Source: Deltaproteobacteria bacterium (GTDB lineage Bacteria > Desulfobacterota > Syntrophia > Syntrophales > UBA2210). Taken from it: 60,685 nucleotides of DNA. This document shows positions 5,544-32,767 of the stretch, piece by piece. Positions within the stretch are counted from its first letter, which is position 1, and every line of letters begins with the position of its first letter. Under the pieces are notes generated by a model. That model had not been told where the DNA came from and did not search any database. It was given only the letters and a program-made list of their open reading frames with translations. The stretch lies in assembly GCA_019313695.1 (NCBI GenBank), contig JAFDAS010000004.1:1-60685 (forward strand), written 5' to 3'. A program made the position numbers and the translations under genes.

Positions 5544-6905
5544 ATGAGAAAGCTTGAGATATCCGAGGGTGACATAAACATTTCTCCCGGAAGGAATAAA
5601 TGGCAGGAGGAGAATCTTAGCAAAGAGACACGTGCCGTCCTTGATGAAGACTCGCGATATTTCCTGAGTCAAGCGCTCTCCACTCCCTGTCTGAACGTAA
5701 TGTCCCGGTGCGAAGGGGCATATATTGAAGACATGCAGGGCCGGCGGTATATGGATTTTCACGGGAACAATGTCCATCAGGTGGGCTTTGCCAATCCTGA
5801 TGTTATAGAGGCGGTTAAACGACAGCTTGACGACCTCTCATTCTGCACCCGGCGCTACACCAACAGCGTGGCCGTTGAGCTGGCGGGAAAACTCTGCGAA
5901 ATCGCGCCGGGGGATTTGAATAAGGTGCTCTTGTGCCCCGGAGGGACCGAGGCAATAGGAATTGCCATAAAGCTCGCCCGAATGGCAACAGGCCGCCACA
6001 AGACGATTTCAATGTGGGATTCCTTTCACGGCGCGTCACTCGACGCGATATCCATAGGGGGAGAGGCGATATTTCGCAGGGACATTGGTCCCCTTATGTC
6101 CGGGACGGAGCATGCTCCCCCACCCGATGAATATCACTGTGCCTTCGGTTACCCGAATTGCGATGGCTGTGATTTTGTCTGCGCGCGGTACATCGAGTAT
6201 ATACTTGAAAAAGAGGGAGATATCTCCGCTGTTATAGCCGAGCCGATAAGGAGCACCCCTTACATTCCCAGACCTGAATACTGGAGAATAATAAGAGAAG
6301 CCTGTGACCGTCATGGCGCACTGCTTATATTCGATGAAATCCCTCACGCGCTGGGTCGTACAGGAAAGATGTTTACATTCGAGAATTTCGATATTGTACC
6401 TGACATGGTTGTGATAGGCAAGGGACTGGGAGGGGGAATATTTCCACTTGCCGCGCTGATCGTCCGGGAGAATCTGGACGTTGCCGCGGAACGGGCTCTG
6501 GGACACTATACCCATGAAAAAAGTCCCGTCGGATGCGCGGCGGCGCTGGCAACTATCGATTATATAGAGCGTCACAATCTTGCAGCCCGCGCCTCTGAAC
6601 TGGGCAGATACGCCCTCGATCGGATGGGGGGAATGATGGAACGGCACCCCCTGATAGGGGATGTCAGGGGGATAGGTCTGTTCCTCGGAATAGAACTGGT
6701 GAAGGACAGGGCGACGCGTGAAAGGGCTGTCGAAGAGGCGGAAGAGGTGATGTACAGGGCTCTGACTAAGGGACTGAGCTTCAAGTTGACTATGGGAAAT
6801 ATAATTACCCTCACACCGGCCCTGATAATCACCAGGGAAGAGATGGACAGGGCGCTTGATATCATCGACGAATGCCTGAACGAGGTGGAGGAGAATAAGC
6901 GGTAA
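5544..6905 (+). CDS. class III (omega-type) PLP aminotransferase family protein, paralogue 1
   Basis: 453 aa with a class III fold-type I pattern (MDFHGNNVHQVGFANP, FDEIPHALGRTGKMF). Paralogue of 28199..29569. AAGGAGG RBS. Confidence 0.85.
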   Translation: MRKLEISEGDINISPGRNKWQEENLSKETRAVLDEDSRYFLSQALSTPCLNVMSRCEGAYIEDMQGRRYMDFHGNNVHQVGFANPDVIEAVKRQLDDLSFCTRRYTNSVAVELAGKLCEIAPGDLNKVLLCPGGTEAIGIAIKLARMATGRHKTISMWDSFHGASLDAISIGGEAIFRRDIGPLMSGTEHAPPPDEYHCAFGYPNCDGCDFVCARYIEYILEKEGDISAVIAEPIRSTPYIPRPEYWRIIREACDRHGALLIFDEIPHALGRTGKMFTFENFDIVPDMVVIGKGLGGGIFPLAALIVRENLDVAAERALGHYTHEKSPVGCAAALATIDYIERHNLAARASELGRYALDRMGGMMERHPLIGDVRGIGLFLGIELVKDRATRERAVEEAEEVMYRALTKGLSFKLTMGNIITLTPALIITREEMDRALDIIDECLNEVEENKR

Positions 6906-6914
6906 AAAAGGCGA

Positions 6915-6940
6915 GGCCGGAAGAATAGCTGCTTCCGGCC
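6915..6940. terminator. bidirectional terminator hairpin between convergent genes
   Basis: GGCCGGAAG-aatagctg-CTTCCGGCC, flanked by A-runs on both sides. Confidence 0.6.
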
Positions 6941-7027
6941 CCACGGGCTAAAAAGGAGGTTTGGAGGGTTCCCGGTAATGTGTCGTAATTGACCGCTGAG
7001 GTTGCCTGGCAGACCTCACAGTTGTGA

Positions 7028-8140
7028 TCATAAAAGAGTGTCAACGGGTACGTACTCAAGCCCGAAGGCGTCGGCAACCCCCATGCAGGTCACCTTGCCC
7101 TTTACCACATTGGCGCCATGTTTGATTTCCCGGTTTTCCCTGAAAGCCCTTTTCCAACCCTTTGTTGCGATTTCCACGGCGTAAGGCAGGGTGGCATTGG
7201 TAAGAGCCAGTGTCGATGTCTTCGGTACGGCGCCGGGCATATTGGCAACACAGTAATGAAGCACTCCGTCCACGGTGAAGACAGGATCAGTGTGTGTGGT
7301 GGCCTTTGATGTTTCGAAACACCCGCCCTGATCGATGGCAACATCGACCATAACGGAGCCCTTTTTCATGGTTTTTAACATGTCTCGGGTTACAAGTTTC
7401 GGCGCCTTGGCTCCAGGGATGAGGACAGCCCCTATCACCAGGTCCGCTTCCCTTATGAGGTTGCGAATCGTAACCGGTTTTGACATGAGCAGAAAACAGT
7501 TCTTCGGCATTACATCACTCAGATAGCGGAGACGGTACAGGTCGTTATCAAGCAGATACACCTTGGCGCCCAGGCCGCATGCCATCTTTGCGGCATTGGT
7601 CCCTACGATTCCACCTCCGATGATGAGTACGGTGCCGGGGTCAACTCCCGGAACTCCGCCCAGAAGAACTCCCGCTCCTCCCCGGGACATTTCCAGATAA
7701 CGGGCTCCCTCCTGAATAGACATACGCCCTGCCACTTCACTCATCGGATTAAGGAGGGGCAATGATCGATCCTCCATCTGTATGGTTTCGTAGGCTATAT
7801 TTACAGATCCGCTCTGGACGAGGTGCCTGGTCAGTTTTTCATTTGCGGCAAGGTGGAGGTATGTGAAGACAATCTGGTCTTTCCTGATAAATCCATATTC
7901 CGACGGCAGCGGTTCCTTGACATGCATTACCATTTCTGCTCGTTCGTAGATTTCCCGGGGGCCTCCCACTATCTCTGCCCCGGCATTCATGTAAACTTTG
8001 TCTGAGAGTCCGCTCTTTATGCCGGCCTTCTTTTCCACAAGAACGGTATGCCCGTTCTGGTTCATCACTTCGACCCCTCCGGGGGTCATGGATACCCTGT
8101 TCTCTTCGGCCTTGATTTCTTTAAGAATCCCTACAATCAT
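7028..8140 (-). CDS. ald: alanine dehydrogenase
   Basis: [23 protein letters not shown]... and the NAD-binding segment [24 protein letters not shown]. 370 aa, typical for Ald. Confidence 0.9.
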
Positions 8141-8291: not shown

Positions 8292-9341
8292 TTACCAGAA
8301 TACGGATTCTTCTATTGCCTTTAAGAGCCTCTTTATATCTTCAGGATAAATGTCGCCAATGTTTCCGATCCTGAACGTATCGAGCTTTGTCACTTTGCCC
8401 GGATAGATAACGAAACCCCTCGCTTTCAGTTTGTCATAGAAGTCCTTGAAATTATATTTTTCACTTTCAGGACTGTAGAAGGATGTAATAATCGGTGACT
8501 GGAACTCGTCGGGCAGAAGAGTTTTGAAACCAAGCCTTCTCATACCTTCGACCAGGATCCTCTGGCTGGAGCTGTATCGCTCGTGTCTCTTTTCAATTCC
8601 GCCTTCCTCTTCCAGTTCCAGCATCGCCTGGTAAAAGGCCCTTACAACGTGAGTGGGAGAGGTGTACCGCCACTTGCCTCCGTCCGCTTCCATCATCTGC
8701 CACTGATCATAGAGATCAAGGGAGAGCGAACGGGCGTAGCCCTTTATCTTCGTCATTTCCTTTTTCCTGGCGATGATAAAACCAAAGCCCGGAACTCCCT
8801 GGATACATTTGTTTGAGCTTCCAACGCAGTAGTCGATGTTCAGGTCGGAAATATCCATGGGGACTCCACCAAAACTACTTATGGTGTCGGAAAAGTATAC
8901 CCTCCCGTGCTTTTTGACTATCTCGCCTATCTTATCTATGGGATTGATCATGCCCGTAGTCGTTTCACAGTGTACAACGGCAACGTGAGTTATATCCCTG
9001 TCTTCCTTCAGGGTTGACTCAAGCTTTTCCAGGTCGGGCTTTGCCAGTTCCCCGCTGTTATGAACGACGGTGTTTATCTTGAGGGTTTTAGAGATCAGGG
9101 CGATCCTGTCTCCGTAGGCGCCGTTTGCGAGGACGAGAAGCTTACCCTCGGGAGGGATTATGGAACCGATAATCGATTCAACGGAAAAGGTGCCGCTACC
9201 CTGCATAAGAGTGATTGTGTATTCTTCAGTTTTCTTCGTGGCCAGCGCGAGGAGCTTTGCCCGCAAATCTTCCACCAGGGTCTTGTAATCATCGTCCCAG
9301 GTGCACCAGTCTCTCAGCATAACGGCCTTTATTGTATCCAT
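8292..9341 (-). CDS. phnW: 2-aminoethylphosphonate--pyruvate transaminase-like (PhnW-type class V aminotransferase, short N-terminus)
   Basis: [12 protein letters not shown] and [19 protein letters not shown] are signature stretches of PhnW. AGGAGG RBS lies directly upstream. An in-frame stop 14 codons upstream excludes a longer N-terminus. Confidence 0.75.
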
Positions 9342-9561: not shown

Positions 9562-10809
9562 TTATGAAAATCCATAGGCCCGCTGTTTACTCTCGGGTAT
9601 AAGCAAAACAGCTAAGATGCCCAGCGCCGCCAGAAAACTAAGCAGAAAAAAGACTGATGCATATGATCCGAAGGTGTCGATAAGAATACCTGTCAGAAAC
9701 ATGGCGCACATGCTCCCCAGATGTCCTCCTGCCTCAAGAAAGCCGGACGCGGTTCCTGTGAGATCTGGTGAAAGTATATCCAGTTCCAGCGCGAAGAAAA
9801 GAGTCCCTATGGTCTGGTCGAAGAAACCGACGCCTGCTATGAGCATGAGTACGATAATTAAGTGGTCGGAAAGGGCCAGAAGGGCGGTGAATATGAGGAT
9901 CATGAATAATCCCACCAGGATAACGGGCTTCCTTTTCCCCTTGAGGGTGATGTCCGACAGATAGCCACCCAGAGGTCGCGCTATTATGCCCATAAGAGGA
10001 TAGATGCCCGCGCAGAGACCGGCCGAAACGACACTGAGGCCGTGGAATTCGTAGAGATACAAGGGGAGCCATATGAGGTTGCAGTAAGTTATATAGCTCA
10101 GACAGGAAAATCCCAGGCAGGCCATTCTCGTGGGTCCATTTGAGATGACGGCAAAGAGCCTGTTTTTTCTTTGTAAAGATACACCGTCTGGTTCCTCGTC
10201 GGGGTTGTCCCGCCCGATAATTATGCCGGACTCGTCAGGATGATCAGTTGCAAGAAGCCGGAAAATAACAAGACCGGGAAGCATAATAAGGGGCGATATT
10301 ATGAATACGATTCTCCAGCCGAATCTGTGGCCAACATAACCTGAAAGCAGATAGGCAAGAACGGTGAAAACGGATGTACAGGTGCAGAATATTCCAAGGG
10401 CACGCCCTCTTTCGGAAGCTGGAAACCAGTTGTTGAGGAGCTTGATGCTCGGGCTGAAGCCACAACCCTGTCCGAGGCCGTTTACGCTCTGGAGGCCTAT
10501 GAGGAATCCAAGCCCTGTTCCGGCGCTGAAGAGTGCATTCGCCAGGGATGACAAAAAGCCCCCGGTGACGATAATCTTTCTGGGACCGAAAATGTCGCTC
10601 AGATATCCCGCGGGGAGTTGGGCTATGGTGTAGAAGGCAAAAAAAGCGGTGCTGATGAGACCGATCTGGGTGTGCGTAAGATGCAGATCCCTCATCATTA
10701 AGGGAATAACCGGTGCCAGGTTAAGTCTGTTAAGGTAATAGCATCCGTAAACGAGCCAGAGAACAGCCAGTACCTTGTAACGGGGATGATATTGGAGTTT
10801 TGAGAACAT
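9562..10809 (-). CDS. MFS transporter
   Basis: About 12 predicted TM segments with MFS-like loops (YLNRLNLAPV, GYLSDIFGPRK). Start is uncertain: ATG 10809 is preferred over TTG 10863. Confidence 0.75.
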   Translation of the reverse strand: MFSKLQYHPRYKVLAVLWLVYGCYYLNRLNLAPVIPLMMRDLHLTHTQIGLISTAFFAFYTIAQLPAGYLSDIFGPRKIIVTGGFLSSLANALFSAGTGLGFLIGLQSVNGLGQGCGFSPSIKLLNNWFPASERGRALGIFCTCTSVFTVLAYLLSGYVGHRFGWRIVFIISPLIMLPGLVIFRLLATDHPDESGIIIGRDNPDEEPDGVSLQRKNRLFAVISNGPTRMACLGFSCLSYITYCNLIWLPLYLYEFHGLSVVSAGLCAGIYPLMGIIARPLGGYLSDITLKGKRKPVILVGLFMILIFTALLALSDHLIIVLMLIAGVGFFDQTIGTLFFALELDILSPDLTGTASGFLEAGGHLGSMCAMFLTGILIDTFGSYASVFFLLSFLAALGILAVLLIPESKQRAYGFS

Positions 10810-10958
10810 GTATATTTCAGTACAAATAAAGCCCGGATATGTAAAGCCGAAAATCCAATTCAACCCATCTGCTGGCAGAGCCGGTTGATCCTCAATGATT
10901 CAGGTGGCAACGGGAACCGATCCCGGCATCTCACGAAGGACGGAACATTTCGGCATTT

Positions 10959-11615
10959 TTAGTTGTCTGAGTCTAACAGACGAAGCAATTCGCTGGAGGC
11001 GTCCAGGATTGTATCATATATTCCATGGGCTCCGGAAAAATCGCCATCCATTGTCAGTCTGTTTGGGACTACCATGCATCTGATCCCGGCCGCGATTGCA
11101 GCCCTGAGGCCGCGTTCCGAATCCTCCACGATGATGCAGCGCTCTTTTTTGAAACCGTTTTTCCTAATCGCAGTGAGAAAGGGATCGGGGTCCGGTTTGG
11201 AACGTTCGTAGTCCTCCCGGGTCAACACGAAATTAAAATATGGCAAGAGTCCCGTGGCGGCATGAATAATGTCAAAGTGTTCCCTCCGGGAACTCGTTAC
11301 CACGCCCATGGACACCCTGCCCTGTAACATGCGGAGCGTATGCTCAACACCGTCTATCGGCCGAACACCGCTCCGCAGCAGGTTGCCATAGAGAAGATTG
11401 CGTTTCTGTTGGAGACGAGAAATCTTCTCCGCTGTTATGCCCCTTTCGGCGGCAAGGTCGAAGGAGCTGCGACCCTGCTTCAGGGAAATTGTCTTGAACA
11501 GTTCCTCGGTCAGTTCGACTCCCGTTTCGGAAAGAGCCTCTTTCGTTGATTCATAGTACAGTCTTTCCGTATCGACGAGGACACCGTCGTTGTCCCACAG
11601 GATCGCTTCCAGCAT
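10959..11615 (-). CDS. HAD-IA family hydrolase
   Basis: ILWDNDGVLVDTE (motif I) and VVEDSERGLRAAIAAG (motif IV). The PhnX-type DWAGT motif is absent. Confidence 0.8.
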   Translation of the reverse strand: MLEAILWDNDGVLVDTERLYYESTKEALSETGVELTEELFKTISLKQGRSSFDLAAERGITAEKISRLQQKRNLLYGNLLRSGVRPIDGVEHTLRMLQGRVSMGVVTSSRREHFDIIHAATGLLPYFNFVLTREDYERSKPDPDPFLTAIRKNGFKKERCIIVEDSERGLRAAIAAGIRCMVVPNRLTMDGDFSGAHGIYDTILDASSELLRLLDSDN

Positions 11616-11633: not shown

Positions 11634-13025
11634 TTAATCTCTGCCCCACTTGTTCAGATAACTGCCTAAAAGTTCCTCCTCAGTGGGAACATGATAGTTC
11701 TCAATTGGCTGAGCGAGATTAGTATAATTCAGAAAGTGCTTCCAGTTCACGTTAGTGCTGGAGATGTTGCCGGCCCATGTGCCACACCCGAGGGTATCGG
11801 TAAATGGATTACCGCTGAACCAGGCGCCGCTGTTTGCCGCCCCGTGAGGCATATTGCAACAGACTCTTCCCACGTTTGCCTTGATGGCGAGCTCCATCAT
11901 CCTGTCCTGACGGGTGGAATGAATCGCTATCGAATGTCCCTCACCTGAGAACTTGTGCATCTTTTTCGCCCGTTCCACCATCTCGCTGAAATCCGTCCAT
12001 TTCCATATGGTGAGAACGAGGGATATCTTTTCTCCGGAGAATCTGTCTTCAGAACCAATCTTTTCTCCCATAACCATAAGACACCGTGTACCATCCGGGA
12101 TATTAATATCAGACATCTTTGCAGGATACTCGACTGGTCTTGCCACACAGTCGCGGTTCAATACTGTTCCATCCGGCCACATCCATTTACGAAGTCTTTC
12201 GCGCTCTTCAGTGGCGCAGAGATAGCCGCCCTCTTCTTTGAGGCACTCCATCATCTCGTCAAAAACACTCTCTTGAATGGCAACAGCGTTTTCCGATGAA
12301 CAGGACGCTGCATTGTTGGCACATTTCGACATCATTATCTTGTTGGCGGCAGCCTTGAGATCGGCCGTGGAATCAATAATCGAAATGACATTGCCCGCGC
12401 CGACCGTTTGGGCCGGTTTGCCCGCCTCATAGACAACCTTGATCAGTGCCGCTCCGCCTGTGGCAACCGCATAGTCGCAACTTGCCATGAGTTTCTGCGT
12501 CTTCTCGTTGGTAGGATGCTTAATGCACTGCATCAGATCCTCCGGGGCGCCAATTTTTTTCAGGGCCTTCCTGCCGAGTTCGACAGTCTTGTATGAGCTC
12601 TGCGGTGTCCTGGGATGAGGAGACACGATCTGGGCGTTTCTCGTTTTCAGCATGCTGAGACCGAGGGCGCAGATTGTGGATTCGGGGTTCGTACAGGGCA
12701 CAACGTTCGCGATGACACCGATGGGTTTGGCCAGGATCTTGAGATTTTTTTCAGGTATATCTTCTATTACGCCGCAGGTCTTTACGCCTTTCTGGTCCCA
12801 GAGCGTGCCGAGACATTTGTCCTTTATCTTGTTTACCTTGTCCTCATAGCGGCCGATTCCGGATTCATCGACAGAAAGGCGCGCAAGGAGTTTCCTGTTC
12901 TCCTCCTTCTGCCATTCCCAGGCTGCCGCCTGGCACATCTCGTCGACCTTTTCCTGTGGCCAGAACTCTATGGTTTCAAAGGCCTTTCGTGCCCTTTCAT
13001 ACATCTCTTGAATGTTGTCTTCCAT
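11634..13025 (-). CDS. CoA-acylating aldehyde dehydrogenase (SucD/SauS/EutE-like)
   Basis: 463 aa. TVGAGNVISIID and NNAASCSSENA (catalytic Cys) resemble acylating ALDHs. The ELGGK general-base motif of non-acylating ALDHs was not seen. GGAGG RBS. Confidence 0.75.
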   Translation of the reverse strand: MEDNIQEMYERARKAFETIEFWPQEKVDEMCQAAAWEWQKEENRKLLARLSVDESGIGRYEDKVNKIKDKCLGTLWDQKGVKTCGVIEDIPEKNLKILAKPIGVIANVVPCTNPESTICALGLSMLKTRNAQIVSPHPRTPQSSYKTVELGRKALKKIGAPEDLMQCIKHPTNEKTQKLMASCDYAVATGGAALIKVVYEAGKPAQTVGAGNVISIIDSTADLKAAANKIMMSKCANNAASCSSENAVAIQESVFDEMMECLKEEGGYLCATEERERLRKWMWPDGTVLNRDCVARPVEYPAKMSDINIPDGTRCLMVMGEKIGSEDRFSGEKISLVLTIWKWTDFSEMVERAKKMHKFSGEGHSIAIHSTRQDRMMELAIKANVGRVCCNMPHGAANSGAWFSGNPFTDTLGCGTWAGNISSTNVNWKHFLNYTNLAQPIENYHVPTEEELLGSYLNKWGRD

Positions 13026-13057
13026 GATATTTTTTTACCTCCGAATAAAAGTATTAA

Positions 13058-13093
13058 AGATACGGCCGGCGGCTCACGCCTTCGGCCGTATCT
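13058..13093 (-). terminator. strong intercistronic stem-loop (attenuator, terminator or processing site)
   Basis: Perfect 11-bp stem AGATACGGCCG / CGGCCGTATCT with a 14-nt loop. A T-rich tract follows on the minus strand. Confidence 0.45.
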
Positions 13094-13164
13094 TATAAGT
13101 GACACTGCCGTAACTCAGTACGGAATCATTCCCGTATGGAGAAATCGCCCACCTTTGCGTTCAA

Positions 13165-14187
13165 TTACTTTTTCTCCTGTTTTTTCAAATAGTCAAGAGG
13201 ATCAACGATATCTTCAATGATCCGCCAGCCCGTTCCGTACATATTCTGTTTTTCTTCGAAGCCCTTCTTCCATTCTTCGGGCGTCTTATACTCGACGGCA
13301 GAGGCAAATTTCTTCCTTTCCTCAAGAGAGGGCACGGACCGATCTTCCGGGCCGTCATAGTCCTCCTTCGGGGTAAGGTCTTCACCGAATCTCCGTTGAG
13401 GCTCTCTCTCCACCTCTTCACACCAGTGAGCGCCGGCATCAAAGGCCCTGGTAATCGCTAAAATGATCCATGTGGCGTCAGGGGAAAATTCCAGGTCCAT
13501 CATGGTGGCTCCGATGGCTCCGAGAAGATCGAGGTCTACGGGCTTGTCGCTGAGCTTCTGGACTGCCGCCACAATTTCCTTCATGAAGGCAATGTATTTG
13601 CCGTCAACTCCCAGTTTTTCGGCCCGGGCGAGGGTCCTTTTGGCGGCGGGGTCCCTAAGCATCAAGTCGGAGACGCCGAGGTGAACCGCGTCAAGATTTT
13701 CCCTTGCAAGCAATTCGGCAACTTCCGCGGTGGATTTTCCCTCTTTCTCCGCCATGGCGAGATACTTGTCGAGCATCTTGCCAAAGGCATCAAACGCTCC
13801 GTACGAATGCCCAAAAGCCAGAATAGAAGCGCCGCATGCCTGGGTAAGGAGGGTGGTGCTGCTTCCCGTGATCCTTGCAATTTCCGCGGGTGAAGACAGG
13901 CCGTCATCAAGAGAAAGGATCATAACGTAGTTCAGCATCTGCGTTTCTTCTATAAGGGGAATCCTGGCCTGGAAGTCAATGAAGATAATATCCGCGAGGC
14001 CGTATCCCTGCTCGACAAGTTCCGTCGTGTCATAGCCCCTTGTCACAATGCTGTGAACGTTTTTGTAGGCAACCTCGGAGACCCACTGAAAAGGGGCTCG
14101 TGTTTTATCCTGAGGGACAGTGCCCCGTTCCCTCTTTGAATAATCGTAATTTAATCTTGGATCATCTAAATTACCTATAACGCCCAT
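13165..14187 (-). CDS. citrate synthase / citryl-CoA lyase-fold protein, degenerate subunit
   Basis: VTRGYDTTELVEQG..., LSLDDGLSSPAE, AFGHSYGAF and LMLRDPAAK align by eye to citrate-synthase blocks (DHE..S, HGGA, GFGHRVY..DPR), with catalytic positions substituted. GGAAGGAG RBS lies 9 nt before ATG 14187. Confidence 0.65.
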   Translation of the reverse strand: MGVIGNLDDPRLNYDYSKRERGTVPQDKTRAPFQWVSEVAYKNVHSIVTRGYDTTELVEQGYGLADIIFIDFQARIPLIEETQMLNYVMILSLDDGLSSPAEIARITGSSTTLLTQACGASILAFGHSYGAFDAFGKMLDKYLAMAEKEGKSTAEVAELLARENLDAVHLGVSDLMLRDPAAKRTLARAEKLGVDGKYIAFMKEIVAAVQKLSDKPVDLDLLGAIGATMMDLEFSPDATWIILAITRAFDAGAHWCEEVEREPQRRFGEDLTPKEDYDGPEDRSVPSLEERKKFASAVEYKTPEEWKKGFEEKQNMYGTGWRIIEDIVDPLDYLKKQEKK

Positions 14188-15071
14188 TTTTTCCACTCTC
14201 CTTCCTCTTTCTGTTTTTTCGCGTATTCCTGTCTCTCTGCCTGGCTTGGAACCTCTCTGTCCTCGGGACCAACGTATTTTATCATGGAGAGATCCAGCAT
14301 CTGTACCATAGGTTCACTTTTCGACGCGGCCCAGGCGCGGCCTTTCTTCACCTGGTAGAGGGCATGAGCAGCGCAGCTGTATCCCCTGGTGACGCATCCG
14401 ATACACCAGGCGGCATTGGGTGCAAATCCTATCTCGGCAAGGGCGGTATTTCCCGCTCCGATCATATTGACGGATACATAGGATTTACCCTCTTTTTTCC
14501 TCCGCTCATTGAAATGCTTCTCTATCGACCTTTGAAGTTCCAGGTAGACGCCGTTTATACCCAGCTGTTCGTGCTTGATATGCGTCGGCTCCGCCCTGGG
14601 GTCTCCGTCGAGATGCTGGGGCTGTCCCATGCCCATGACAGCGAGACCGGCATCCATGTGCTCATCAACGAGGATCTTGCCCATCTCTTCCAGGGATATG
14701 CCCTCAACGCGGGCACGTTCGATGTACTTATGCATCATATATCCGTGAGCAGCTCCCGGTCCATGGGCGCCACCGAAGGTCATAACAGCGGCCGCGGCAG
14801 CGGCCGGAATGTTGGGTCTTCCACTGATTACCCCGAAAGCTGATGCCGCCGAGGGTGACATGGAATGTTCCAGAAATTCTCCCATTTCATACTCGAGCAT
14901 CTTTTCCTCTTCCTCGGTTGGAAGCCTCTGTTGGAACAGGACAAACATGGCGTCACAAAAGGTATATCCGGCCTCCGCCAGATCGCTTACATTGTAGCCA
15001 CGTAAGACGGTCTTTTCTTCTGTCTTGTAGGAAATCGATGTCTTCCTGCGGAAGAACGGTTCTCTGCTCAT
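14175..15071 (-). CDS. citrate synthase / citryl-CoA lyase-fold protein, less degenerate subunit
   Basis: VLRGYNVSDLAEAG, EHSMSPSAAS, TFGGAHGPGA and GMGQPQHLDGDPRA match citrate-synthase-family blocks. GGAGG RBS. It overlaps the downstream partner by 13 nt. Confidence 0.7.
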   Translation of the reverse strand: MSREPFFRRKTSISYKTEEKTVLRGYNVSDLAEAGYTFCDAMFVLFQQRLPTEEEEKMLEYEMGEFLEHSMSPSAASAFGVISGRPNIPAAAAAAVMTFGGAHGPGAAHGYMMHKYIERARVEGISLEEMGKILVDEHMDAGLAVMGMGQPQHLDGDPRAEPTHIKHEQLGINGVYLELQRSIEKHFNERRKKEGKSYVSVNMIGAGNTALAEIGFAPNAAWCIGCVTRGYSCAAHALYQVKKGRAWAASKSEPMVQMLDLSMIKYVGPEDREVPSQAERQEYAKKQKEEGEWKKWAL

Positions 15072-15304: not shown

Positions 15305-16174
15305 TCAACTTATCCCTATGAAAATTACTCCCAGTGCGATGATAAAAGATCCCGTCAATTTCTGCATGGCATGTTTCTCTTTGAACCAGACAAGGCCGTA
15401 AATTGTCGACAGCACAATACTAAGTTCACGGACGGCAACAACATAACTCACATTGCTCATACGAAACGCAAAGAGAATCATCATGTACGTCAGGAGCACA
15501 AGAACTCCCACGGCAAGTATATTGTTTCGATTGCAACGCCACTCCTTTCTCAGTTCCTCTCTTTTCTTTATCAGCACATAGGGCGACAAAGACGTCACGA
15601 CAATCAACAACATGAAATATATGTACAAAGGCGGCTCCACAAAACCCACGCCTACCTTATCGACAAGTGAATAGGCTGCAATCGTAAGGCCTGTCATGAT
15701 CGACCAGGATGACGCACCATGCTTCACTGCGCGAAAAGGTTCCACGAAAGAATCGAATGCAAAGGATCTCAGGTGAATCACATATATCCCAGACACAACC
15801 AACGCGATGCCAAGAGCCCCCATCGGATAAATTTTTTCGTGCAGAAACAATACTGCCATCACCGGCACCAAAAGCGGTCCCGAACCCCTGGAAATGGGAT
15901 AGACCAGCGAGAGGTCGCCACGCTCGTATGCGCCGCACATAAAGATGTAATAAAGAACATGGAGCAGTCCCGTTGCCGCAATACACAACCATCCTTCCAT
16001 TGGTATGTCAGCGCGAAACCAATAGTAAAAAAACATCGGAGAATAAAAGACCAGCGACACTACCAAAAACGCCCAGCTGTAGGTGAGCTTATCGAGGCTT
16101 TTTTTCAGAAAATAATTCCACCCGGAATGTAAAAAAGCCGCCACTATCACTATCACAAGAGCAATATCACTCAC
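15305..16174 (-). CDS. EamA/DMT-family transporter
   Basis: 289 aa with ~10 TM segments and a two-EamA-repeat architecture. Confidence 0.75.
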   Translation of the reverse strand: MSDIALVIVIVAAFLHSGWNYFLKKSLDKLTYSWAFLVVSLVFYSPMFFYYWFRADIPMEGWLCIAATGLLHVLYYIFMCGAYERGDLSLVYPISRGSGPLLVPVMAVLFLHEKIYPMGALGIALVVSGIYVIHLRSFAFDSFVEPFRAVKHGASSWSIMTGLTIAAYSLVDKVGVGFVEPPLYIYFMLLIVVTSLSPYVLIKKREELRKEWRCNRNNILAVGVLVLLTYMMILFAFRMSNVSYVVAVRELSIVLSTIYGLVWFKEKHAMQKLTGSFIIALGVIFIGIS

Positions 16175-16471: not shown

Positions 16472-17566
16472 TCACATAATGACGGCAACACGTACCGCTT
16501 CGCCCGATTCCGCGATTCTAAGGCCTTTGTTGATATCGTCCAGGCTTATCCTGTGCGTGACAATTTCCCTGAAGGGGAAATCCTTCTGTCTCATCTCCAG
16601 GAGGTCAAGTCCCGCCTTCAGGTGTCTGGCGTCATAATTGTGAATTCCCCTGATGGTGAGTCTTCTGAATATGATGTCGCAGGCATCATAGGTGAAGTCG
16701 GCTCCGGGGAAAGCGCAACCCACTTCGACAAACCGCCCTCCGATACGGAGGCACTTCAATCCAAGAGGAATAAGACCAGGCACACCCGCCACTTCCATGG
16801 CGCAATCGACTCCGTGATCGTCCGTAAGACTTTTGATCGCATCGACGATTTCGTCGTCTTTCATATTCCGTACGTTTATGGTATCAGTTGCGCCGAACCG
16901 TTTTATAAAATCCAATCGATGATCCAATATATCGGTAACGATAATTTTTCTGCACCCGTAATGCGATGCCAGCGCAGAGGCATAAAATCCGAGCGCGCCT
17001 GCCCCCTGAATCAACACGTTTTCAAAGGGTTTGACTTCGGCCGCCTCCCACGCGGCAATGACCGTTCCCAGCGCGCAATTCGCTGGTGCGACTTCCTCAT
17101 CAGTGAGCGAATCCGGCACTTTAAACACACATGTCCCCGGTGTAATGTAGCAGTACTCGGCAAAGCCTCCCTTAAAATGGGGAGGGGTTTCACAACTGTC
17201 GTGACCGTACTTTTTCAGATTTTGGCATTTCATGGGCAGGCCTTTATCACGGCAGTAGTAACATTTTCCGCAGTTGTCCATGATGGTCCAGGTAACCCTG
17301 TCGCCCACTCGCAGGGATCTGTCAGCGCTGTCATGCGTCACCCCCCTGCCAAGTTCCACAATCTTTCCGACAATTTCATGGCCGAGAATAATTGGGACAG
17401 GCGCGGGTCTGTGGCCCAGCCATGAATGAACATCCGAGCCGCAGATAGTGCAGCAGGTTATCTTAACAAGGATACATCCCTTTTCTACCTCAGGTAAGGG
17501 ATATTCTATGAATTCAAGGTCCTTTTTCTGGGCCGTCATCACGGCGGCTCTTCCCATCTTGGTCAT
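16472..17566 (-). CDS. zinc-dependent medium-chain alcohol dehydrogenase
   Basis: CGSDVHSWLGH...GHEIVG (catalytic Zn), CGKCYYCRDKGLPMKC (structural Zn) and GAGALG (NAD). It resembles the clade described as phosphonate-catabolism-associated ADH; this was not verified. Confidence 0.85.
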   Translation of the reverse strand: MTKMGRAAVMTAQKKDLEFIEYPLPEVEKGCILVKITCCTICGSDVHSWLGHRPAPVPIILGHEIVGKIVELGRGVTHDSADRSLRVGDRVTWTIMDNCGKCYYCRDKGLPMKCQNLKKYGHDSCETPPHFKGGFAEYCYITPGTCVFKVPDSLTDEEVAPANCALGTVIAAWEAAEVKPFENVLIQGAGALGFYASALASHYGCRKIIVTDILDHRLDFIKRFGATDTINVRNMKDDEIVDAIKSLTDDHGVDCAMEVAGVPGLIPLGLKCLRIGGRFVEVGCAFPGADFTYDACDIIFRRLTIRGIHNYDARHLKAGLDLLEMRQKDFPFREIVTHRISLDDINKGLRIAESGEAVRVAVIM

Positions 17567-21206: not shown

Positions 21207-22139
21207 TTATTGTTTCTTATTCTGAGACTTCACTTCCTCGTAGGCCCTGTTTAAAAGCCGTATTACGTCGTAGTCTGTGTCTTTCATGCTCACACACTTT
21301 TCGGCCTTGACATTGTCAAGCCACGCCTGACACGTGGGTTCTTCATGAACGGTAAGAAATGCCCGTCTGATTTTTTCTCTCAATTGAGGATGGAGGTCCA
21401 TTCTATAGGCAAAGGGGTCCTGGGGAATCGTTGCGGACCACCAGATGTAATTGAAATCTTCTTTTTTCACAACGCTGCGATCTATGACGTTGTCGAATCG
21501 ATGGGTGGCAACGAATGCGCAGTCTATCCTGCCATCGTAAACCGCCATGATGGAAAGATCATGCCCTCCGGAATAGACTACCCTCTTAAAATATTTTTCC
21601 AGGGGCATCCCGACTTCTTTTACGAAAACCACCCGGGGCACCAGATTTCCCGATGTGCTGTCAGGATCAGTCAGAACAACTGTCGCTCCCTTTATGGATT
21701 CAACCGTTGTATATTTGCTGCCTTTTTTTGTTATGATTACCGATTGGTATCCCGGGCCGCTTTTGCTGATATATCCCTGTTTCTTCTTGTAGGTGGCGAA
21801 TACCACGATGTCAGGGTCTTTTTCGTGGGCTATCACGTATGAAAAGGGTCCGTGAACGGCGACATCCACCCACCCATTAACCTGCGCTTCCACGACGCTG
21901 GAATAGGAGGCGGGCATATAGAAATTTATTTTTTTCCCTGTGCATTTAGAAAGATAGTCTATAAGAGGTTTATAGATGGTAAGTTCCTGGATGGTTTCCT
22001 CTGTGGGGATGATGGAAAATGTGAGGATATCAGGGTCCTTCCACCCGTCATCCGCAGAAATGCATCTTACCCCTGAGAGGATAAGGCATGTCGATACAAA
22101 GAAAACGATAATTAATCTTGAGATTATTATTTTCTTCAT
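21207..22139 (-). CDS. PhnD-like phosphate/phosphite/phosphonate-type periplasmic binding protein (orphan; no adjacent permease or ATPase)
   Basis: Signal peptide. LTFSIIPTEETIQELTIYKPLIDYLSK...VDVAVHGPFSYV matches the PhnD/PF12974 pattern. Confidence 0.75.
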   Translation of the reverse strand: MKKIIISRLIIVFFVSTCLILSGVRCISADDGWKDPDILTFSIIPTEETIQELTIYKPLIDYLSKCTGKKINFYMPASYSSVVEAQVNGWVDVAVHGPFSYVIAHEKDPDIVVFATYKKKQGYISKSGPGYQSVIITKKGSKYTTVESIKGATVVLTDPDSTSGNLVPRVVFVKEVGMPLEKYFKRVVYSGGHDLSIMAVYDGRIDCAFVATHRFDNVIDRSVVKKEDFNYIWWSATIPQDPFAYRMDLHPQLREKIRRAFLTVHEEPTCQAWLDNVKAEKCVSMKDTDYDVIRLLNRAYEEVKSQNKKQ

Positions 22140-22880: not shown

Positions 22881-23537
22881 TCAGTCGCTGATGGCGATAT
22901 AGTCTTTGCTGATGGCGTATTTTACAAGTTCTGAGGTGTTTTTGAGATTAAGCTTCTTCATCATATTCGCGCGGTGATTCTCTACTGTTCGAATGCTTAT
23001 ATACAGCATTCCGGCAATTTTTTTGTTCGTTTTTCCTTCGGCGACGAATTTTATGATTTCCCTTTCACGAGAGGTAAGGATTTCAAAATCGTGATTGTAT
23101 TTTCCCCTGCACATCTGAACGAAATTATCGGCAAGGTCATCTGTGAGGATGGGGGAAATGAAAATGCCCCCTCCCCGGATCTTTTCTATCGCCATATATA
23201 GTTCGGTGTCTGCGTCTTCTTTTAGAAGGTAACCCTCGGCGCCCGCGGAGATGGAGTGGTGCAAATATTCCCTGCCCTTATGCATGGTCAGGATGAGAAT
23301 TTTAATGCCGGGGTCTGACATTTTTATTTCGCGCGTGGCTTCGATTCCCCGTATGTTCGGCATGGATATATCAAGAATGACCATGTGGGGGGTCATCTCT
23401 TTTAACATGCGGAGAAGTGCCAGGCCGTCGCTTACCTCTCCTATGACTTTTACATCGTCAAGTTCCTCAAGGATCTTCCTTACTCCCAGGCGGAACATCT
23501 TATGGTCATCGGCCAGTATAATGCTGTAGGGGTCCAT
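22881..23537 (-). CDS. NarL/FixJ-family response regulator (REC + LuxR HTH)
   Basis: ILADDHKMFR...DISMP receiver motifs and a C-terminal LTSREREIIKFVAEGKTNKKIA HTH. Confidence 0.9.
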   Translation of the reverse strand: MDPYSIILADDHKMFRLGVRKILEELDDVKVIGEVSDGLALLRMLKEMTPHMVILDISMPNIRGIEATREIKMSDPGIKILILTMHKGREYLHHSISAGAEGYLLKEDADTELYMAIEKIRGGGIFISPILTDDLADNFVQMCRGKYNHDFEILTSREREIIKFVAEGKTNKKIAGMLYISIRTVENHRANMMKKLNLKNTSELVKYAISKDYIAISD

Positions 23538-25585
23538 TACTGATTGACCTCCCCGTCAATGGGAACAGTAAATGTTATTTCTGTTCCCATGCCTTCCTTG
23601 CTCCCTATGTTGAAGGATGAGCCCAGCATCCGCGCGCGTTCCTGCATGGCTGCCAAGCCAATCCCTTTTTTTGATGAATATTTACCGGAATGTCTCCTGG
23701 TCTTAAAGCCTTTTCCGTTGTCTTTTACCGTAAAGAAGATCGATCCGTCTACATTTTTTATAATGATGGATGCACGGCTGGCCTCGGCGTGTTTATCAAT
23801 ATTCGTGAGGATTTCCTGAAAAATCCTGTAGATAATAATCTGCTGCTCGGAAGAGAAGAATTCGTCGATCTTTTCGATATCAATATCGGCATCGATATTA
23901 TAATATTTTATGAAGTCGTCTATGAGTCGCTGTATTGCCGCCGAAAGCCCGATATCTTCCAGTATCGAGGGGCTGAGGTCCCGGGAAATCCTTCGCACGT
24001 TTTCGATAACAGAGTCAATACAACCTAACATCTCGTTGCATTCCGTTATTAATTTTGTCTGGTCCCCGCTCAGATTTCTTTTTATGAAACTGATCTGCAT
24101 TTTTAACAGAGACAGAGACTGTCCGAGGTCGTCGTGAAGTTCGTAAGAAAGCTTTTTTCTCTCTTTTTCCTGAGCAGTAAGGATATGTGAGGAGAGGACG
24201 CGCAGTTCGTTTCTGGAATCTCTCAAGGCGTCTTCTATCCTTTTTCTTTCATCGATTTCCATCAACAGGTTGTCCTTTGCCTTTGACAGATCGGCCGTTC
24301 TTTCCTTCACCCGTTTTTCCAGTTCATGGTGGGCCTTTTGAAGGGCCATCTCACTCTTTTTACGTTCGATGATGTCCCTGGCTACGCATACTATTCCCTG
24401 GATATCGCCGCTGTCGTTCTTCATTACGGCGCCTGAAAAGAGAACGGGTATCCTTTTCCCATTCTTTGTCAGGTAGGTTTTTTCCATGTTGACGACAGCG
24501 CCCGTTGACACCAGTCCGTCTATTACCGAATCGCCCGTTGACGCCTCTTCCGGGATTATTTCCTGTATCGATTTCCCGACGAGGTCATCCCTTTCGTATC
24601 CAAGGAGATTGAGTGCTGATTGATTGACCTTGATGATTTCCCCCCGGGGATTGATAACAATAAGAGTGTCGAGCATGGATTTGATTATATTATCCACGTA
24701 TGATTTTGAGACAGTGGTTTTGCCCAGATTGTGTGCCATTTCATTGAATGCGTTTGTCAGTACGCCAACTTCATCCGAGGAGGTGATGTCTATCTGGGTA
24801 TCCAGTTGCCCCCGGCCTATCTCAAGCGCCGCTGTGGCCAGTCTGTTTATGGGTCTTGAAACGGAACGGGAAATCCAGTATCCCATAATGACCACGGTAA
24901 ATATTGTGCCCATGGTCAAGGCGATTATCATTAGGGTGGCATTGGGAATGGATTCATCTATGATTTTTGAGAGATGAATCTCCATATCCTCGTGGGTTTT
25001 TTCTCTATATCTGTTGATGACGGGATATATGTTCTTTCTGTAATGAGGCTCAAGGGTTTTTTTGAAAAAATCATAGGCCTGGTTTGGCACTTTGTCTGAG
25101 AGATTTATAAAGTGCGACAGGTACTTCCAGTGGTAATAAAAGTCTCGTTTACGGAGGCTGACCCATCTCTGAAGATCTTCGTCATTAATATAGTCGGCTC
25201 TGCGGATTTCTCCTTTCCCCTTCAGTGGTATGTCGGTCAGGTTCGGTTCGATGGTGGCTGAAAGAAAATGCTCCAGCCGCTGCAGATTCGATTTGATATT
25301 CTTCTGTTCCAGGTCAAACACATCCCTTTGCTGACGCTTGTCCGGAAATGTGTATATGATCCTGTATTTCTTATTTACCAGGTCCTGAACGGATTCCTGA
25401 CATCTTTCCATAACGAGGAGCACTTCATCCGACGCCTCCGATTCAACGAGGGAATATTTATTCAGTTTTATAACATTCAGTTTGATGTCGTTGTATATCT
25501 TAATATAGAGATACCCGGCGCAGATTATCAGCACGGACATAATCAGATATCCGAGCATTAATTTGTGAGTTATCTTCATCGCCAT
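23537..25585 (-). CDS. sensor histidine kinase (TM-sensor-TM-HAMP-PAS-HisKA_3-HATPase)
   Basis: HAMP (SRPINRLATAALEIGRGQLD), PAS, and the H-box SYELHDDLGQSLS typical of the NarX/HisKA_3 class. Overlaps the RR gene by 1 nt. Confidence 0.9.
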   Translation of the reverse strand: MAMKITHKLMLGYLIMSVLIICAGYLYIKIYNDIKLNVIKLNKYSLVESEASDEVLLVMERCQESVQDLVNKKYRIIYTFPDKRQQRDVFDLEQKNIKSNLQRLEHFLSATIEPNLTDIPLKGKGEIRRADYINDEDLQRWVSLRKRDFYYHWKYLSHFINLSDKVPNQAYDFFKKTLEPHYRKNIYPVINRYREKTHEDMEIHLSKIIDESIPNATLMIIALTMGTIFTVVIMGYWISRSVSRPINRLATAALEIGRGQLDTQIDITSSDEVGVLTNAFNEMAHNLGKTTVSKSYVDNIIKSMLDTLIVINPRGEIIKVNQSALNLLGYERDDLVGKSIQEIIPEEASTGDSVIDGLVSTGAVVNMEKTYLTKNGKRIPVLFSGAVMKNDSGDIQGIVCVARDIIERKKSEMALQKAHHELEKRVKERTADLSKAKDNLLMEIDERKRIEDALRDSRNELRVLSSHILTAQEKERKKLSYELHDDLGQSLSLLKMQISFIKRNLSGDQTKLITECNEMLGCIDSVIENVRRISRDLSPSILEDIGLSAAIQRLIDDFIKYYNIDADIDIEKIDEFFSSEQQIIIYRIFQEILTNIDKHAEASRASIIIKNVDGSIFFTVKDNGKGFKTRRHSGKYSSKKGIGLAAMQERARMLGSSFNIGSKEGMGTEITFTVPIDGEVNQ

Positions 25586-29569: not shown

Positions 29570-29828
29570 TACCGGTTTCTGCGTGTAATCATTATCCCCG
29601 GAAGGCCATATGCCAGTCCCGCCGCCACGCTTTGCGAGTAATGTTTCCCCTGACAACAAATACCCCCAGATCATAATCTAAAGTCATTATAACGCATATA
29701 ATTAGTCCTTTGACTTATCCAATATAATATTTGAAGATATTTGAAATCGCCTAAACGATGGAAAAACCTTCGCATTCGAGAACTGAAATCATGTCTTCTG
29801 ATAAAAACAAAAAGAAAAGGGGCAAATT

Positions 29829-30992: not shown

Positions 30993-31067
30993 GGATGGAT
31001 TAAGGGGTGCAATATGCTTGTATAAGTTCCTCTTGGAGCGCCCCTGATAACCTCATGTTATCTATAT

Positions 31068-31092
31068 CATAATAATTATTATTTTGACTTAT
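31068..31092 (+). promoter_or_regulatory. 25-nt shared leader box, copy 3 (CATAATAATTATTATTTTGACTTAT)
   Basis: 22/25 identical to copy 1. It lies 620 nt upstream of the ABC binding-protein gene. Confidence 0.5.
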
Positions 31093-31464
31093 ACTTAAAA
31101 AAATATAATGTAAGAAATTGATTGATTAAGGAATATACTAATATTTTTCTCCTGACATATTAGTCCCTTAAGTGTGAATTTCTTGCAAAAATGGCAAAAG
31201 AATTTGTTGTCATGCCCGCAAAACCTTTTGTATAAAGGTATTGCGGTGTTTTTTAGGAAATTCAACTTTTTAAAATTTCTTGGTTCCGGCTTGTCCGGGT
31301 TAGGGTTTATGCGCAATTAAAAATCATTCCCTTCTTTGCGATATCACGCACTTTGTGGTATTGTTCTACTTGTTGCTCTGCGACAAGCTATAACTGTTGC
31401 GCTATACCCGAAAACCATCGGCAAGTCTTTATTCTATAATGTTGTTGCTTTTTGAAATAACTGA

Positions 31465-31527
31465 AGATCCCCGCAGTTCCGTATAAGCAGGACCTCCACT
31501 TTTGCTCCGATAAGTTGCGGGGGATCT
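31465..31527. repeat. long hairpin in the ABC-operon leader
   Basis: AGATCCCCGCA ... TGCGGGGGATCT arms with one extra G. The ~40-nt interior carries the direct motif CCG(T)ATAAG twice. Confidence 0.55.
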
Positions 31528-31568
31528 CCGACTGTTAAAGAAAATTTTTGAGTTTATGCAATCGCTAA

Positions 31569-31588
31569 CCCCGCCGCAAGTAGCGGGG
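31569..31588. repeat. GC-rich REP-like hairpin
   Basis: CCCCGC-CGCAAGTA-GCGGGG. Confidence 0.5.
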
Positions 31589-32713: not shown

Positions 32714-32767
32714 CAGTTTTTTCAATATCTGCAGTTAAATGGCAACTTTCACAAAAAGGGGAGAAGG

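Follow-up and report, generated by a model that had tools for sequence, protein, structure and literature searches.

A probable CoA-dependent module for phosphonoacetaldehyde catabolism with a pair of divergent citrate-synthase-fold proteins in uncultured anaerobes

Two overlapping genes for divergent proteins of the citrate synthase fold, followed by a gene for an aldehyde dehydrogenase of the type that acylates coenzyme A (CoA), are found on contig JAFDAS010000004.1 of a Syntrophales metagenome-assembled genome (MAG; GenBank GCA_019313695.1), of which we analyzed a stretch of 60,685 nucleotides, here called the window. We refer to the products of the open reading frames (ORFs) 14175..15071 and 13165..14187 as CS-A and CS-B, respectively, and to the dehydrogenase (11634..13025) as ALDH; all three lie on the minus strand. 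The pair and the ALDH probably constitute an undescribed CoA-dependent module of phosphonoacetaldehyde or phosphonoacetate catabolism. In the specific route that we tentatively propose, and that we regard as possible rather than probable, the ALDH would convert phosphonoacetaldehyde to phosphonoacetyl-CoA, and the CS pair would then cleave the carbon-phosphorus (C-P) bond of this thioester to give acetyl-CoA and phosphate. Hydrolytic phosphonate catabolism as known so far converges on phosphonoacetaldehyde, which is then consumed either by PhnX or by PhnY-PhnA.

CS-A (298 aa) resembles citryl-CoA lyase (CCL) and is the less degenerate of the two subunits, CS-B (340 aa from its ATG) being a degenerate paralogue of it; the start of CS-B lies over the end of CS-A with an overlap of 13 nt. 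Mechanically the ORF of CS-B begins at a GTG at position 14196, and the ATG is the start used by homologues with 94% identity. Both proteins score above the cut-off of the Pfam citrate synthase family PF00285 (27 bits), CS-A with 59.2 bits (E 5e-16) and CS-B with 29.7 bits (E 4e-7). The nearest solved structure is the CCL of Hydrogenobacter thermophilus (PDB 6HXP), which is matched with E-values of 2e-17 by CS-A and 2e-10 by CS-B, and of 7e-23 if a family profile of CS-A is used, and the two proteins share 32% identity with each other (E 1e-44). Judged from these comparisons, homology of both proteins to the citrate synthase fold is far beyond chance, and the two overlapping citrate-synthase-like genes that the initial annotation had recognized by eye are confirmed in their reading frames, lengths and overlap. 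The sequence blocks on which it relied are present as well, i.e. EHSMSPSAAS, GGAHGPGA and GMGQPQHLDGDPRA in the translation of CS-A and DDGLSSPAE, AFGHSYGAF and LMLRDPAAK in that of CS-B.

The family seems to stand apart from the enzymes whose name it carries. Among the NCBIfam models for CCL (NF004864-NF004869, cut-offs 193-409) the best match is NF004869, with 105.5 bits for CS-A and 98.6 bits for CS-B against a cut-off of 212, and TIGR01800 and the other models for citrate and 2-methylcitrate synthases give no more than 31 bits against cut-offs of 330-590. Both proteins are also shorter than citrate and 2-methylcitrate synthases, which comprise about 370-430 aa and have a large N-terminal domain. 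The homologues of CS-A form 517 clusters at 90% identity, the best 120 of which are 75-96% identical to the query; they originate from Syntrophales, Desulfobacterales, Spirochaetota, Planctomycetota, Chloroflexi and Methanosarcinales, and every one of them is metagenome-derived. The closest, on other Syntrophales MAG contigs, are 96% identical. A search of 1.84 billion representatives at 50% identity retrieved one full-length member of the CS-A family (64% identity) and one sister (45%), and CCL and citrate synthase representatives with a complete set of catalytic residues are about 33% identical to the family or less. The initial annotation had allowed for the two proteins clustering firmly with ordinary citrate synthases or CCLs and retaining all catalytic residues; by sequence, the family does not cluster with them. 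That an ordinary citrate synthase, methylcitrate synthase or CCL has come to lie beside phosphonate genes by chance would agree with the public annotations of the family ('citrate synthase' or 'citrate/2-methylcitrate synthase'), but scores under every NCBIfam cut-off for citrate synthases and CCLs, the missing catalytic residues, the distance from the nearest canonical forms and a phosphonate context that is repeated across many phyla make this explanation practically negligible.

The catalytic residues of the two proteins were mapped by pairwise HMMER, profile HMMER and MAFFT alignments, all of which agreed, and their conservation was assessed over 171 homologues of CS-A and 160 homologues of CS-B; residue numbers are those of pig citrate synthase. 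The pig sequence in the alignment was checked by its textbook residue numbers, which land on the right motifs. At the position of His238, CS-A has His69 and CS-B Asp95; at that of Arg329, Arg159 and Ala181; and at that of Arg401, Arg229 and Arg247. The catalytic triad His274, His320 and Asp375 is represented by His103, Gln150 and Ile204 in CS-A and by Tyr129, Val172 and Leu222 in CS-B. The position of Arg421 is not conserved in CS-A and is probably occupied by Arg261 in CS-B. With the exception of position 204, which varies, all named residues of CS-A are invariant or nearly so, and His320 and Asp375 are gone from both subunits throughout the family; the sister at 45% identity also has Gln and Leu at the positions of 320 and 375. 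CS-A thus keeps the histidine that polarizes the thioester (His274) and the cage of arginine and histidine residues that binds oxaloacetate, and the losses are complementary in that an equivalent of Arg421 is kept in CS-B and not in CS-A.

The initial annotation had read the three quoted blocks as the His/His/Asp triad. They correspond instead to the blocks around His238, around His274 and from His320 to Arg329, and Asp375 belongs to a fourth block (NVDAHSG in the pig enzyme, LNVDGAI in CCL) that has lost this residue in both subunits. Of the notion of a catalytic and a pseudo-catalytic subunit, one half stands, as the two are divergent paralogues and one is far more degenerate; yet even the supposedly catalytic CS-A lacks His320 and Asp375. 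Because retention of residues is complementary, and because the genes overlap and co-occur strictly in all 62 loci described below, we infer that the two subunits probably associate as an asymmetric heterodimer in which both contribute to one active site. AlphaFold2 models of CS-A and CS-B, for which 34 and 33 close homologues, respectively, had been aligned, reached a mean pLDDT of 52 and were unfit for mapping the site in three dimensions.

This residue pattern also bears on an idea that goes back to the initial annotation, in which the pair would be a Claisen-type synthase joining phosphonoacetyl-CoA (or sulfoacetyl-CoA) to an oxo-acid, for which oxaloacetate, glyoxylate and phosphonopyruvate are candidates, or a CCL-type lyase that would cleave such an adduct. 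The fold is consistent with this chemistry, as are the retained His238, Arg329, Arg401 and, from the partner subunit, Arg421, and in one archaeal locus (L001, see below), which has a phosphoenolpyruvate (PEP) mutase and no phosphonopyruvate decarboxylase, a condensation that consumes phosphonopyruvate could pull the mutase reaction. However, since the base Asp375 and the carbonyl-polarizing His320 are missing in both subunits and in the whole family, including CS-A, ordinary Claisen or lyase chemistry is unlikely on sequence grounds. In addition, the catabolic clusters show no downstream enzymes for a condensation product, and two other loci of the archaeal and marine type (L042, L060) have no PEP mutase within 10 kb. 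We therefore consider a synthase or lyase improbable.

The ALDH (463 aa) begins 139 nt downstream of CS-B and is predicted to be an acylating phosphonoacetaldehyde dehydrogenase. Its assignment to the acylating SucD/SauS type, proposed in the initial annotation from the blocks GAGN and NNAASCSSENA, both of which are found in the translation, is well supported: the best NCBIfam model is SauS (NF047625; 465.6 bits, below the equivalog cut-off of 600), the AdhE model gives 355 bits, and the nearest solved structure is the succinyl-CoA reductase SucD of Clostridium kluyveri (CkSucD; 8CEI, 272 bits). In CkSucD the distal carboxylate of the substrate is bound by Lys70 and Ser243, which are replaced by hydrophobic residues in PduP, an enzyme for propionaldehyde (PMC10249356). 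The ALDH aligns Lys66, Lys70, Cys242, Ser243 and His364 with the pocket of SucD, and the first four are present in 44/44 ALDHs of the clusters, His364 in 41/44. As the Lys/Ser pocket is kept in all 44, the sequence makes phosphonoacetaldehyde, as an anionic aldehyde, a more probable substrate than acetaldehyde. Of the two aldehydes that had been suggested from the context, phosphonoacetaldehyde agrees with the presence of PhnW, two copies of PbfA and an alcohol dehydrogenase similar to PbfG in the window, and sulfoacetaldehyde finds no support, every marker in the gene context being phosphonate-specific. Sulfoacetyl-CoA was also discarded as a substrate of the pair; there are no sulfonate genes, and hydrolytic cleavage of the C-S bond would yield sulfate.

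Three independent producers of phosphonoacetaldehyde, together with phosphonate importers, are encoded in the window. PhnW (8292..9341, minus strand), a 2-aminoethylphosphonate (AEP):pyruvate transaminase that makes phosphonoacetaldehyde, scores 541 bits with TIGR02326 (cut-off 400.8), and an alanine dehydrogenase for the regeneration of its pyruvate is encoded next to it (7028..8140, minus strand; TIGR00518, 497 bits, cut-off 392). PbfA, a further source of the aldehyde, is present twice on the plus strand (5544..6905, 712.6 bits, and 28199-29569, 656.6 bits; NF049939, cut-off 525). The third, putative producer is a zinc-dependent alcohol dehydrogenase similar to PbfG/HpnZ (16472..17566, minus strand), a predicted 2-hydroxyethylphosphonate (HEP) dehydrogenase that would yield phosphonoacetaldehyde; it contains PF00107 and PF08240 and, with 309.5 bits, falls just short of the cut-off of TIGR03366 (328). 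PbfG itself was recently characterized as a 2-hydroxyethylphosphonate dehydrogenase, and its clusters normally have phnX or phnY-phnA for consumption of the aldehyde (PMC13576164). Neither PhnX nor PhnY was found among the ORFs of the window scanned with Pfam and NCBIfam, and tblastn of the window with Bacillus cereus PhnX as the query retrieved nothing. By its gene content the window is a phosphonate catabolic island whose routes converge on phosphonoacetaldehyde, and the CS pair and the ALDH occupy the place where PhnX or PhnY-PhnA would normally be.

The gene neighbourhoods of homologues of CS-A and CS-B (numbered L001 and so on), 62 distinct loci in total, were collected and scored for gene content by six-frame tblastn. 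CS-A and CS-B are adjacent in 62/62 loci, and in almost every catabolic locus with room for it the ALDH is the next gene after the pair. The co-occurrence that the initial annotation proposed to examine is near-constant for the ALDH in the catabolic loci, and PhnW or another class-V aminotransferase recurs. Some loci are reduced to a minimal unit of CS-A, CS-B and ALDH with little else than a regulator (L003, L041, L078). The most frequent companions are a HAD protein that we call c8-type (about 30 loci), a HAD protein of the type that follows the ALDH in the window (13 loci), PbfA (13 loci), a hydrolase resembling PhnA (10 loci) and a PhnX-like HAD protein (3 loci; TIGR03351, 170 bits); PbfG-like alcohol dehydrogenases with TRAP transporters, PhnDCE and EamA-family proteins recur as well. 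A family-I CoA-transferase with two subunits (A and B) is present in six loci (L009, L036, L037, L049, L052, L053), in four of which (L009, L049, L052, L053) its genes directly precede CS-A, and L049 also has a short-chain acid transporter similar to AtoE. Since an acylating ALDH or a CoA-transferase would supply the pair, gene context points to an acyl-CoA as its substrate.

On this basis a pathway can be proposed. AEP (via PhnW and alanine dehydrogenase), hydroxy-AEP (via PbfA) and HEP (via the PbfG-like dehydrogenase) would each be converted to phosphonoacetaldehyde, as suggested by strong family matches; the ALDH, judging from its anion-binding acyl pocket, would then use CoA to form phosphonoacetyl-CoA, and in some genomes gene context suggests that the CoA-transferase could make the same thioester from phosphonoacetate. 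The CS-fold pair would finally cut the C-P bond of phosphonoacetyl-CoA, giving acetyl-CoA and phosphate. Its active site would be composed of His69, His103, Arg159 and Arg229 of CS-A and, across the interface, probably an arginine of CS-B. The phosphonate would be placed where C2 of oxaloacetate sits in citryl-CoA, within a cationic cage, and be held by the retained residues of the oxaloacetate site (His238, Arg329, Arg401 and Arg421 of the partner); the thioester would turn the alpha-carbanion into a good leaving group, with the equivalent of His274 stabilizing the enolate of acetyl-CoA. In such a reaction Asp375 would be dispensable because PO3 departs and not a proton, and His320 because no carbonyl is attacked. 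As the thioester would be kept, the C2 carbon could still yield ATP, a point of weight for anaerobes with little energy to spare, and where a CoA-transferase is present the reactions would form a cycle in the manner of citrate lyase and malonate decarboxylase in which the CoA donor is regenerated. The route would replace PhnX or PhnY-PhnA in strict anaerobes. A precedent for this kind of transition is the isocitrate lyase/PEP mutase superfamily, which contains C-C lyases as well as phosphonopyruvate hydrolase. The initial annotation knew of no pathway of this kind, and full-text literature searches agreed with it, retrieving no paper on the catabolism of phosphonoacetyl-CoA or on an acylating phosphonoacetaldehyde dehydrogenase and no CS-fold enzyme among those that couple to PEP mutase or degrade phosphonates; sulfoacetyl-CoA turned up only in connection with SauS and SauT or SauCD.

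Several observations weigh against cleavage of phosphonoacetyl-CoA by the pair. Phosphonoacetyl-CoA is no known metabolite and was found in the literature only as an unobserved hypothetical product. Binding of CoA by the pair is a prediction from sequence, and the AlphaFold models of CS-A and CS-B are too poor to support it. In three loci (L014, L035, L079) no ALDH lies within 9-10 kb of the pair, and one of these, L014, combines the pair with a PbfG-like alcohol dehydrogenase and a PhnX-like HAD protein. Moreover, the c8-type HAD protein, which like PhnX lacks the general acid two residues after the catalytic aspartate (Asp+2), follows the ALDH in about 30 loci and the PhnA-like hydrolase follows in 10 loci, and either of them could be the real C-P-cleaving enzyme.

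The last point leads to the explanation that the pair acts on the thioester bond. As a phosphate acyltransferase similar in function to Pta or PduL it could form either phosphonoacetyl phosphate or acetyl phosphate, and as a thioesterase or transferase it could release phosphonoacetate. The C-P bond would then be cut by the PhnA-like hydrolase, the c8-type HAD protein or both, so that the route would amount to PhnY-PhnA made dependent on CoA. The residue pattern is just as compatible with this explanation, with His274 polarizing the thioester, an arginine-rich anion site and no need for Asp375 or His320; a HAD enzyme without Asp+2 is suited to a substrate whose leaving group is good; a PhnA-like gene comes after the c8-type gene in 10 loci and also in a second operon of the window; and an ALDH coupled to a phosphotransacylase is the usual anaerobic logic, as in the Eut and Pdu systems. 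Yet many loci have only CS-A, CS-B and the ALDH, and neither a HAD gene nor a PhnA-like one lies within 10 kb of them (L003, L041, L078). No acyl kinase is conserved near the pair, the energy that the acylating ALDH conserves would be lost if an acyl phosphate or thioester were hydrolysed, and a CoA-transferase and a Pta-like enzyme would duplicate each other in L009 and L049. On balance this explanation appears rather doubtful.

Alternatively, the C-P bond might be cleaved without CoA at the stage of the aldehyde, if a HAD protein (c8-type, PhnX-like or the one following the ALDH in the window) or the pair hydrolysed phosphonoacetaldehyde to acetaldehyde and phosphate and the ALDH converted acetaldehyde to acetyl-CoA, the pair being otherwise engaged in the case of a HAD enzyme. 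A HAD gene after the ALDH in most loci, the PhnX-like HAD in three loci, the gene content of L014 and the similarity of motif I in the c8-type protein (DFGQT) to that of PhnX (DWAGT) are in line with this. The anionic pocket of the ALDH, conserved as Lys66, Lys70 and Ser243 in 44/44 sequences, is not, nor are the scores of the ALDH, which are higher with SauS and SucD than with acetaldehyde dehydrogenases; the window's HAD protein and the c8-type protein reach only about 25 bits with the phosphonatase model, and both the CoA-transferases and the most conserved genes of the cluster would be left without a role. Cleavage at the aldehyde stage is thus unlikely.

Further evidence against a C-P hydrolase comes from a second genomic context, as the same pair is also found in archaeal and marine clusters for glycans or lipids (L001, L042/L063, L059, L060, L064). 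In these loci the identity is 78-82% for CS-A and 64-69% for CS-B, and no systematic residue difference separates CS-A of this context from that of the catabolic clusters; the ALDH and the CoA-transferase are absent, and a C-P hydrolase has no obvious role in such clusters. CS-A is here fused to a TagD/CCT-like cytidylyltransferase domain, of which two unrelated types occur. Downstream of the fusion gene come CS-B, an HD phosphohydrolase and an NTP-transferase, and this module adjoins genes for CDP-alcohol phosphotransferases and for sugar nucleotides. L001 (GCA_028279655.1, a Nanoarchaeia MAG, 1-21305) additionally encodes a fused PEP mutase, a transaminase of the AepZ type, a decarboxylase similar to CobD and three B12-radical-SAM enzymes, and its cluster has no phosphonopyruvate decarboxylase. 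The possibility that the pair replaces this decarboxylase, which would unify L001 with the catabolic loci, was set aside because decarboxylation of a keto-acid without thiamine diphosphate is chemically implausible in this fold.

Both contexts could be served by one common reaction, for instance a step that runs in either direction on a C2 phosphonate carrying a cytidylyl group or CoA, in which case the link to the ALDH would be only one of its uses. The fusion of two unrelated cytidylyltransferase domains to CS-A, the conservation of the HD and NTP-transferase partners, and the likeness of the two types of CS-A at every conserved position speak for a shared reaction. But no concrete chemistry fits both contexts, and the glycan-type module is rare, with five or six loci compared to about 50 catabolic ones; a scan of metagenomes with its HD protein added only three module loci (L063-L065), and more distant homologues of the HD protein occur without the pair. 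We regard a shared reaction of this kind as quite unlikely. A bolder version, which we consider very improbable, is that the pair is a general enzyme that interconverts a C-P bond and the enolate of acetyl-CoA and that, while cleaving phosphonoacetyl-CoA in anaerobic bacteria, it would form C-P bonds independently of PEP mutase in the archaeal and marine modules, where an enolate derived from acetyl- or malonyl-CoA would attack an activated (cytidylylated) phosphate. Outside phosphonate metabolism, a malonyl-CoA decarboxylase of a beta-alanine/3-hydroxypropionate pathway was also considered and dismissed because PhnW, PbfA, PhnD and PhnS2 score as phosphonate-specific equivalogs.

The remaining genes of the island complete the picture of the window. 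On the minus strand the order is a kinase and LuxR regulator, a PhnD-like protein, DctPQM, the zinc-dependent alcohol dehydrogenase, an EamA-family protein, CS-A, CS-B, ALDH and a HAD hydrolase, followed by an MFS transporter, PhnW, alanine dehydrogenase and a terminator-like hairpin (6911..6944; 13 pairs, 9 of them G-C, with a T tail) that closes the string. The two-component system at its head (22881..25585, minus strand) consists of a PAS/HAMP histidine kinase (23537-25585) and a LuxR-type response regulator (22881-23537), and the same two genes lie upstream of the cluster in L006, L007, L008, L010, L013 and L016. The PhnD-like substrate-binding protein of a phosphonate ABC transporter (21207..22139, minus strand) scores above the cut-off of TIGR01098 (230 bits) and below that of the PhnD model TIGR03431 (226 bits, cut-off 261). 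The TRAP transporter (minus strand; DctM 17710-19026, PF06808; DctQ 19127-19684, PF04290; DctP 19878-20996, PF03480) moves as one unit with the zinc-dependent alcohol dehydrogenase in other loci. The EamA-family membrane protein (15305..16174, minus strand; PF00892) is of the phosphonate-associated 'phn_DUF6' type (TIGR03340, 143 bits, below 288), and its gene recurs directly upstream of CS-A in related loci. The HAD hydrolase after the ALDH (10959..11615, minus strand; PF13419, 114 bits) is similar to beta-phosphoglucomutase, with DNDG as motif I, and is no orthologue of PhnX (25.6 bits with the phosphonatase model TIGR01422, cut-off 220). The MFS transporter (9562..10863, minus strand; PF07690, 234 bits), whose start codon is uncertain, is of the organophosphate/anion type, with the D-galactonate and PgtP types as the best NCBIfam subfamilies.

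A second phosphonate operon lies on the plus strand (28199..37861, or 28.2-38.8 kb including a LysR regulator) and comprises, after PbfA, a gene similar to saccharopine dehydrogenase (29829-30992), PhnS2/U2/T2 (31712-35564), a c8-type HAD protein (36051-36752) and the PhnA-like hydrolase (36773-37861). The c8-type protein, whose lack of Asp+2 is also known from dehalogenases, scores 25.8 bits with TIGR01422 (cut-off 220), and the PhnA-like protein, a member of the alkaline phosphatase superfamily, is related to PhnA without being an equivalog (TIGR02335, 201 bits, cut-off 407.55). The saccharopine-dehydrogenase-like gene, which adjoins PbfA, recurs in L009, L021, L025, L033, L043, L044 and L047 and could catalyze an NAD-dependent step analogous to that of the hydroxy-AEP (HAEP) racemase PbfF; the published PbfF is a different protein, a member of pfam02826.

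Downstream of the second operon we noted an aldehyde:ferredoxin oxidoreductase (43529-45556) and two Fe-type alcohol dehydrogenases (46733-47908 and 48098-49345; pf00465, the family of PhpC), all on the plus strand, which could catalyze additional reactions of aldehydes and alcohols in the island. A cobalamin riboswitch (49351-49521, plus strand, 79.5 bits) precedes FecCD/ABC and TonB-dependent receptor genes (49529-53484), and a tRNA-Leu (CAG) is located at 59468-59554 (plus strand). At the other end of the window are a permease of the ArsP type with a fused heavy-metal-associated domain (1774-3012, plus strand), a class-V aminotransferase similar to BhcA (209 bits) and weakly to PhnW (3083-4234, minus strand), and a protein of the histone deacetylase family (4545-5306, plus strand). 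In the related loci, genes for methyltransferases of the MtmB/MttB family and URO-D (MtaA-like) proteins lie beside the module in L032, L049, L057, L078, L079 and L080, where the methyltransferases may serve the anaerobic demethylation of N-methylated aminoethylphosphonates. A thiamine-diphosphate enzyme (PRK08327, 690 bits) with a distant likeness to the sulfoacetaldehyde acetyltransferase Xsc is encoded upstream of the CoA-transferase and CS genes in L049 (1375-3120) and L053 (83-1828), and a xylose-isomerase-like TIM barrel (AP_endonuc_2) with weak resemblance to the cobamide-remodelling phosphodiesterase CbiR lies upstream of EamA and CS-A in L012, L036, L050 and L077 (6491-7342).

Taken together, the module is probably a CoA-dependent variant of the hydrolytic phosphonate pathways that may include a new class of C-P-cleaving enzyme. 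It would represent a third, CoA-dependent exit from phosphonoacetaldehyde, widespread in uncultured strict anaerobes of the Syntrophales, Desulfobacterales, Spirochaetota, Planctomycetota and Chloroflexota, in which phosphonate turnover is poorly understood. If the assignment as a C-P hydrolase holds true, this class would derive from the citrate synthase superfamily, phosphonoacetyl-CoA would be a new metabolite, and it would be explained how fermenting and syntrophic bacteria retain the energy of the C2 unit. The misannotation of the family as citrate synthases also distorts the prediction of the tricarboxylic acid (TCA) cycle in MAGs.

Among known systems, CCL (6HXP) and the CCL module of ATP-citrate lyase are most similar to the pair in being short citrate-synthase-fold proteins (260-340 aa), and CS-A shares with them the equivalents of His238, His274, Arg329 and Arg401 and a C-terminal Y-x-G-P-x-x-R-x-x-P tail. 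However, CCL consists of one type of subunit with the full set of His274, His320 and Asp375 and functions in the reductive TCA cycle, whereas here two paralogous subunits, with Gln or Val for His320 and Ile or Leu for Asp375 and with scores of half the NCBIfam cut-offs for CCL, are found in phosphonate catabolism. With PhnY-PhnA the module shares its position in clusters with PhnW, PbfA and PbfG and, according to our proposal, the oxidation of phosphonoacetaldehyde followed by cleavage of the C-P bond adjacent to the acyl group thus formed; in contrast, PhnY is a non-acylating aldehyde dehydrogenase, PhnA is a zinc enzyme of the alkaline phosphatase superfamily and not a CS-fold heteromer acting on a thioester, and the product would be acetyl-CoA instead of acetate. 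PhnX likewise disposes of phosphonoacetaldehyde in AEP and HEP clusters and makes carbon a good leaving group, as an enamine where the pair would use a thioester enolate, but it has the HAD fold and a Schiff-base lysine and does not use CoA. SauS and SucD, which interconvert an anionic aldehyde and its CoA thioester, have the catalytic Cys242 and the anion-binding Lys70 and Ser243 in common with the ALDH, whose predicted substrate is the phosphonate analogue; SauS is partnered by the ligases SauT or SauCD, Xsc or IseG and never by a CS-fold protein. In citrate lyase and malonate decarboxylase, acyl exchange is followed by a cleavage that regenerates the acetyl thioester, and the combination of a CoA-transferase with a cleavage enzyme in L009 and L049 may by analogy work in the same way, with acetyl-CoA as the next CoA donor. 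Phosphonopyruvate hydrolase, finally, offers the analogy of a C-C lyase superfamily that has yielded a C-P hydrolase through the same stabilization of an enolate; the protein families of these last three enzymes differ from that of the pair.

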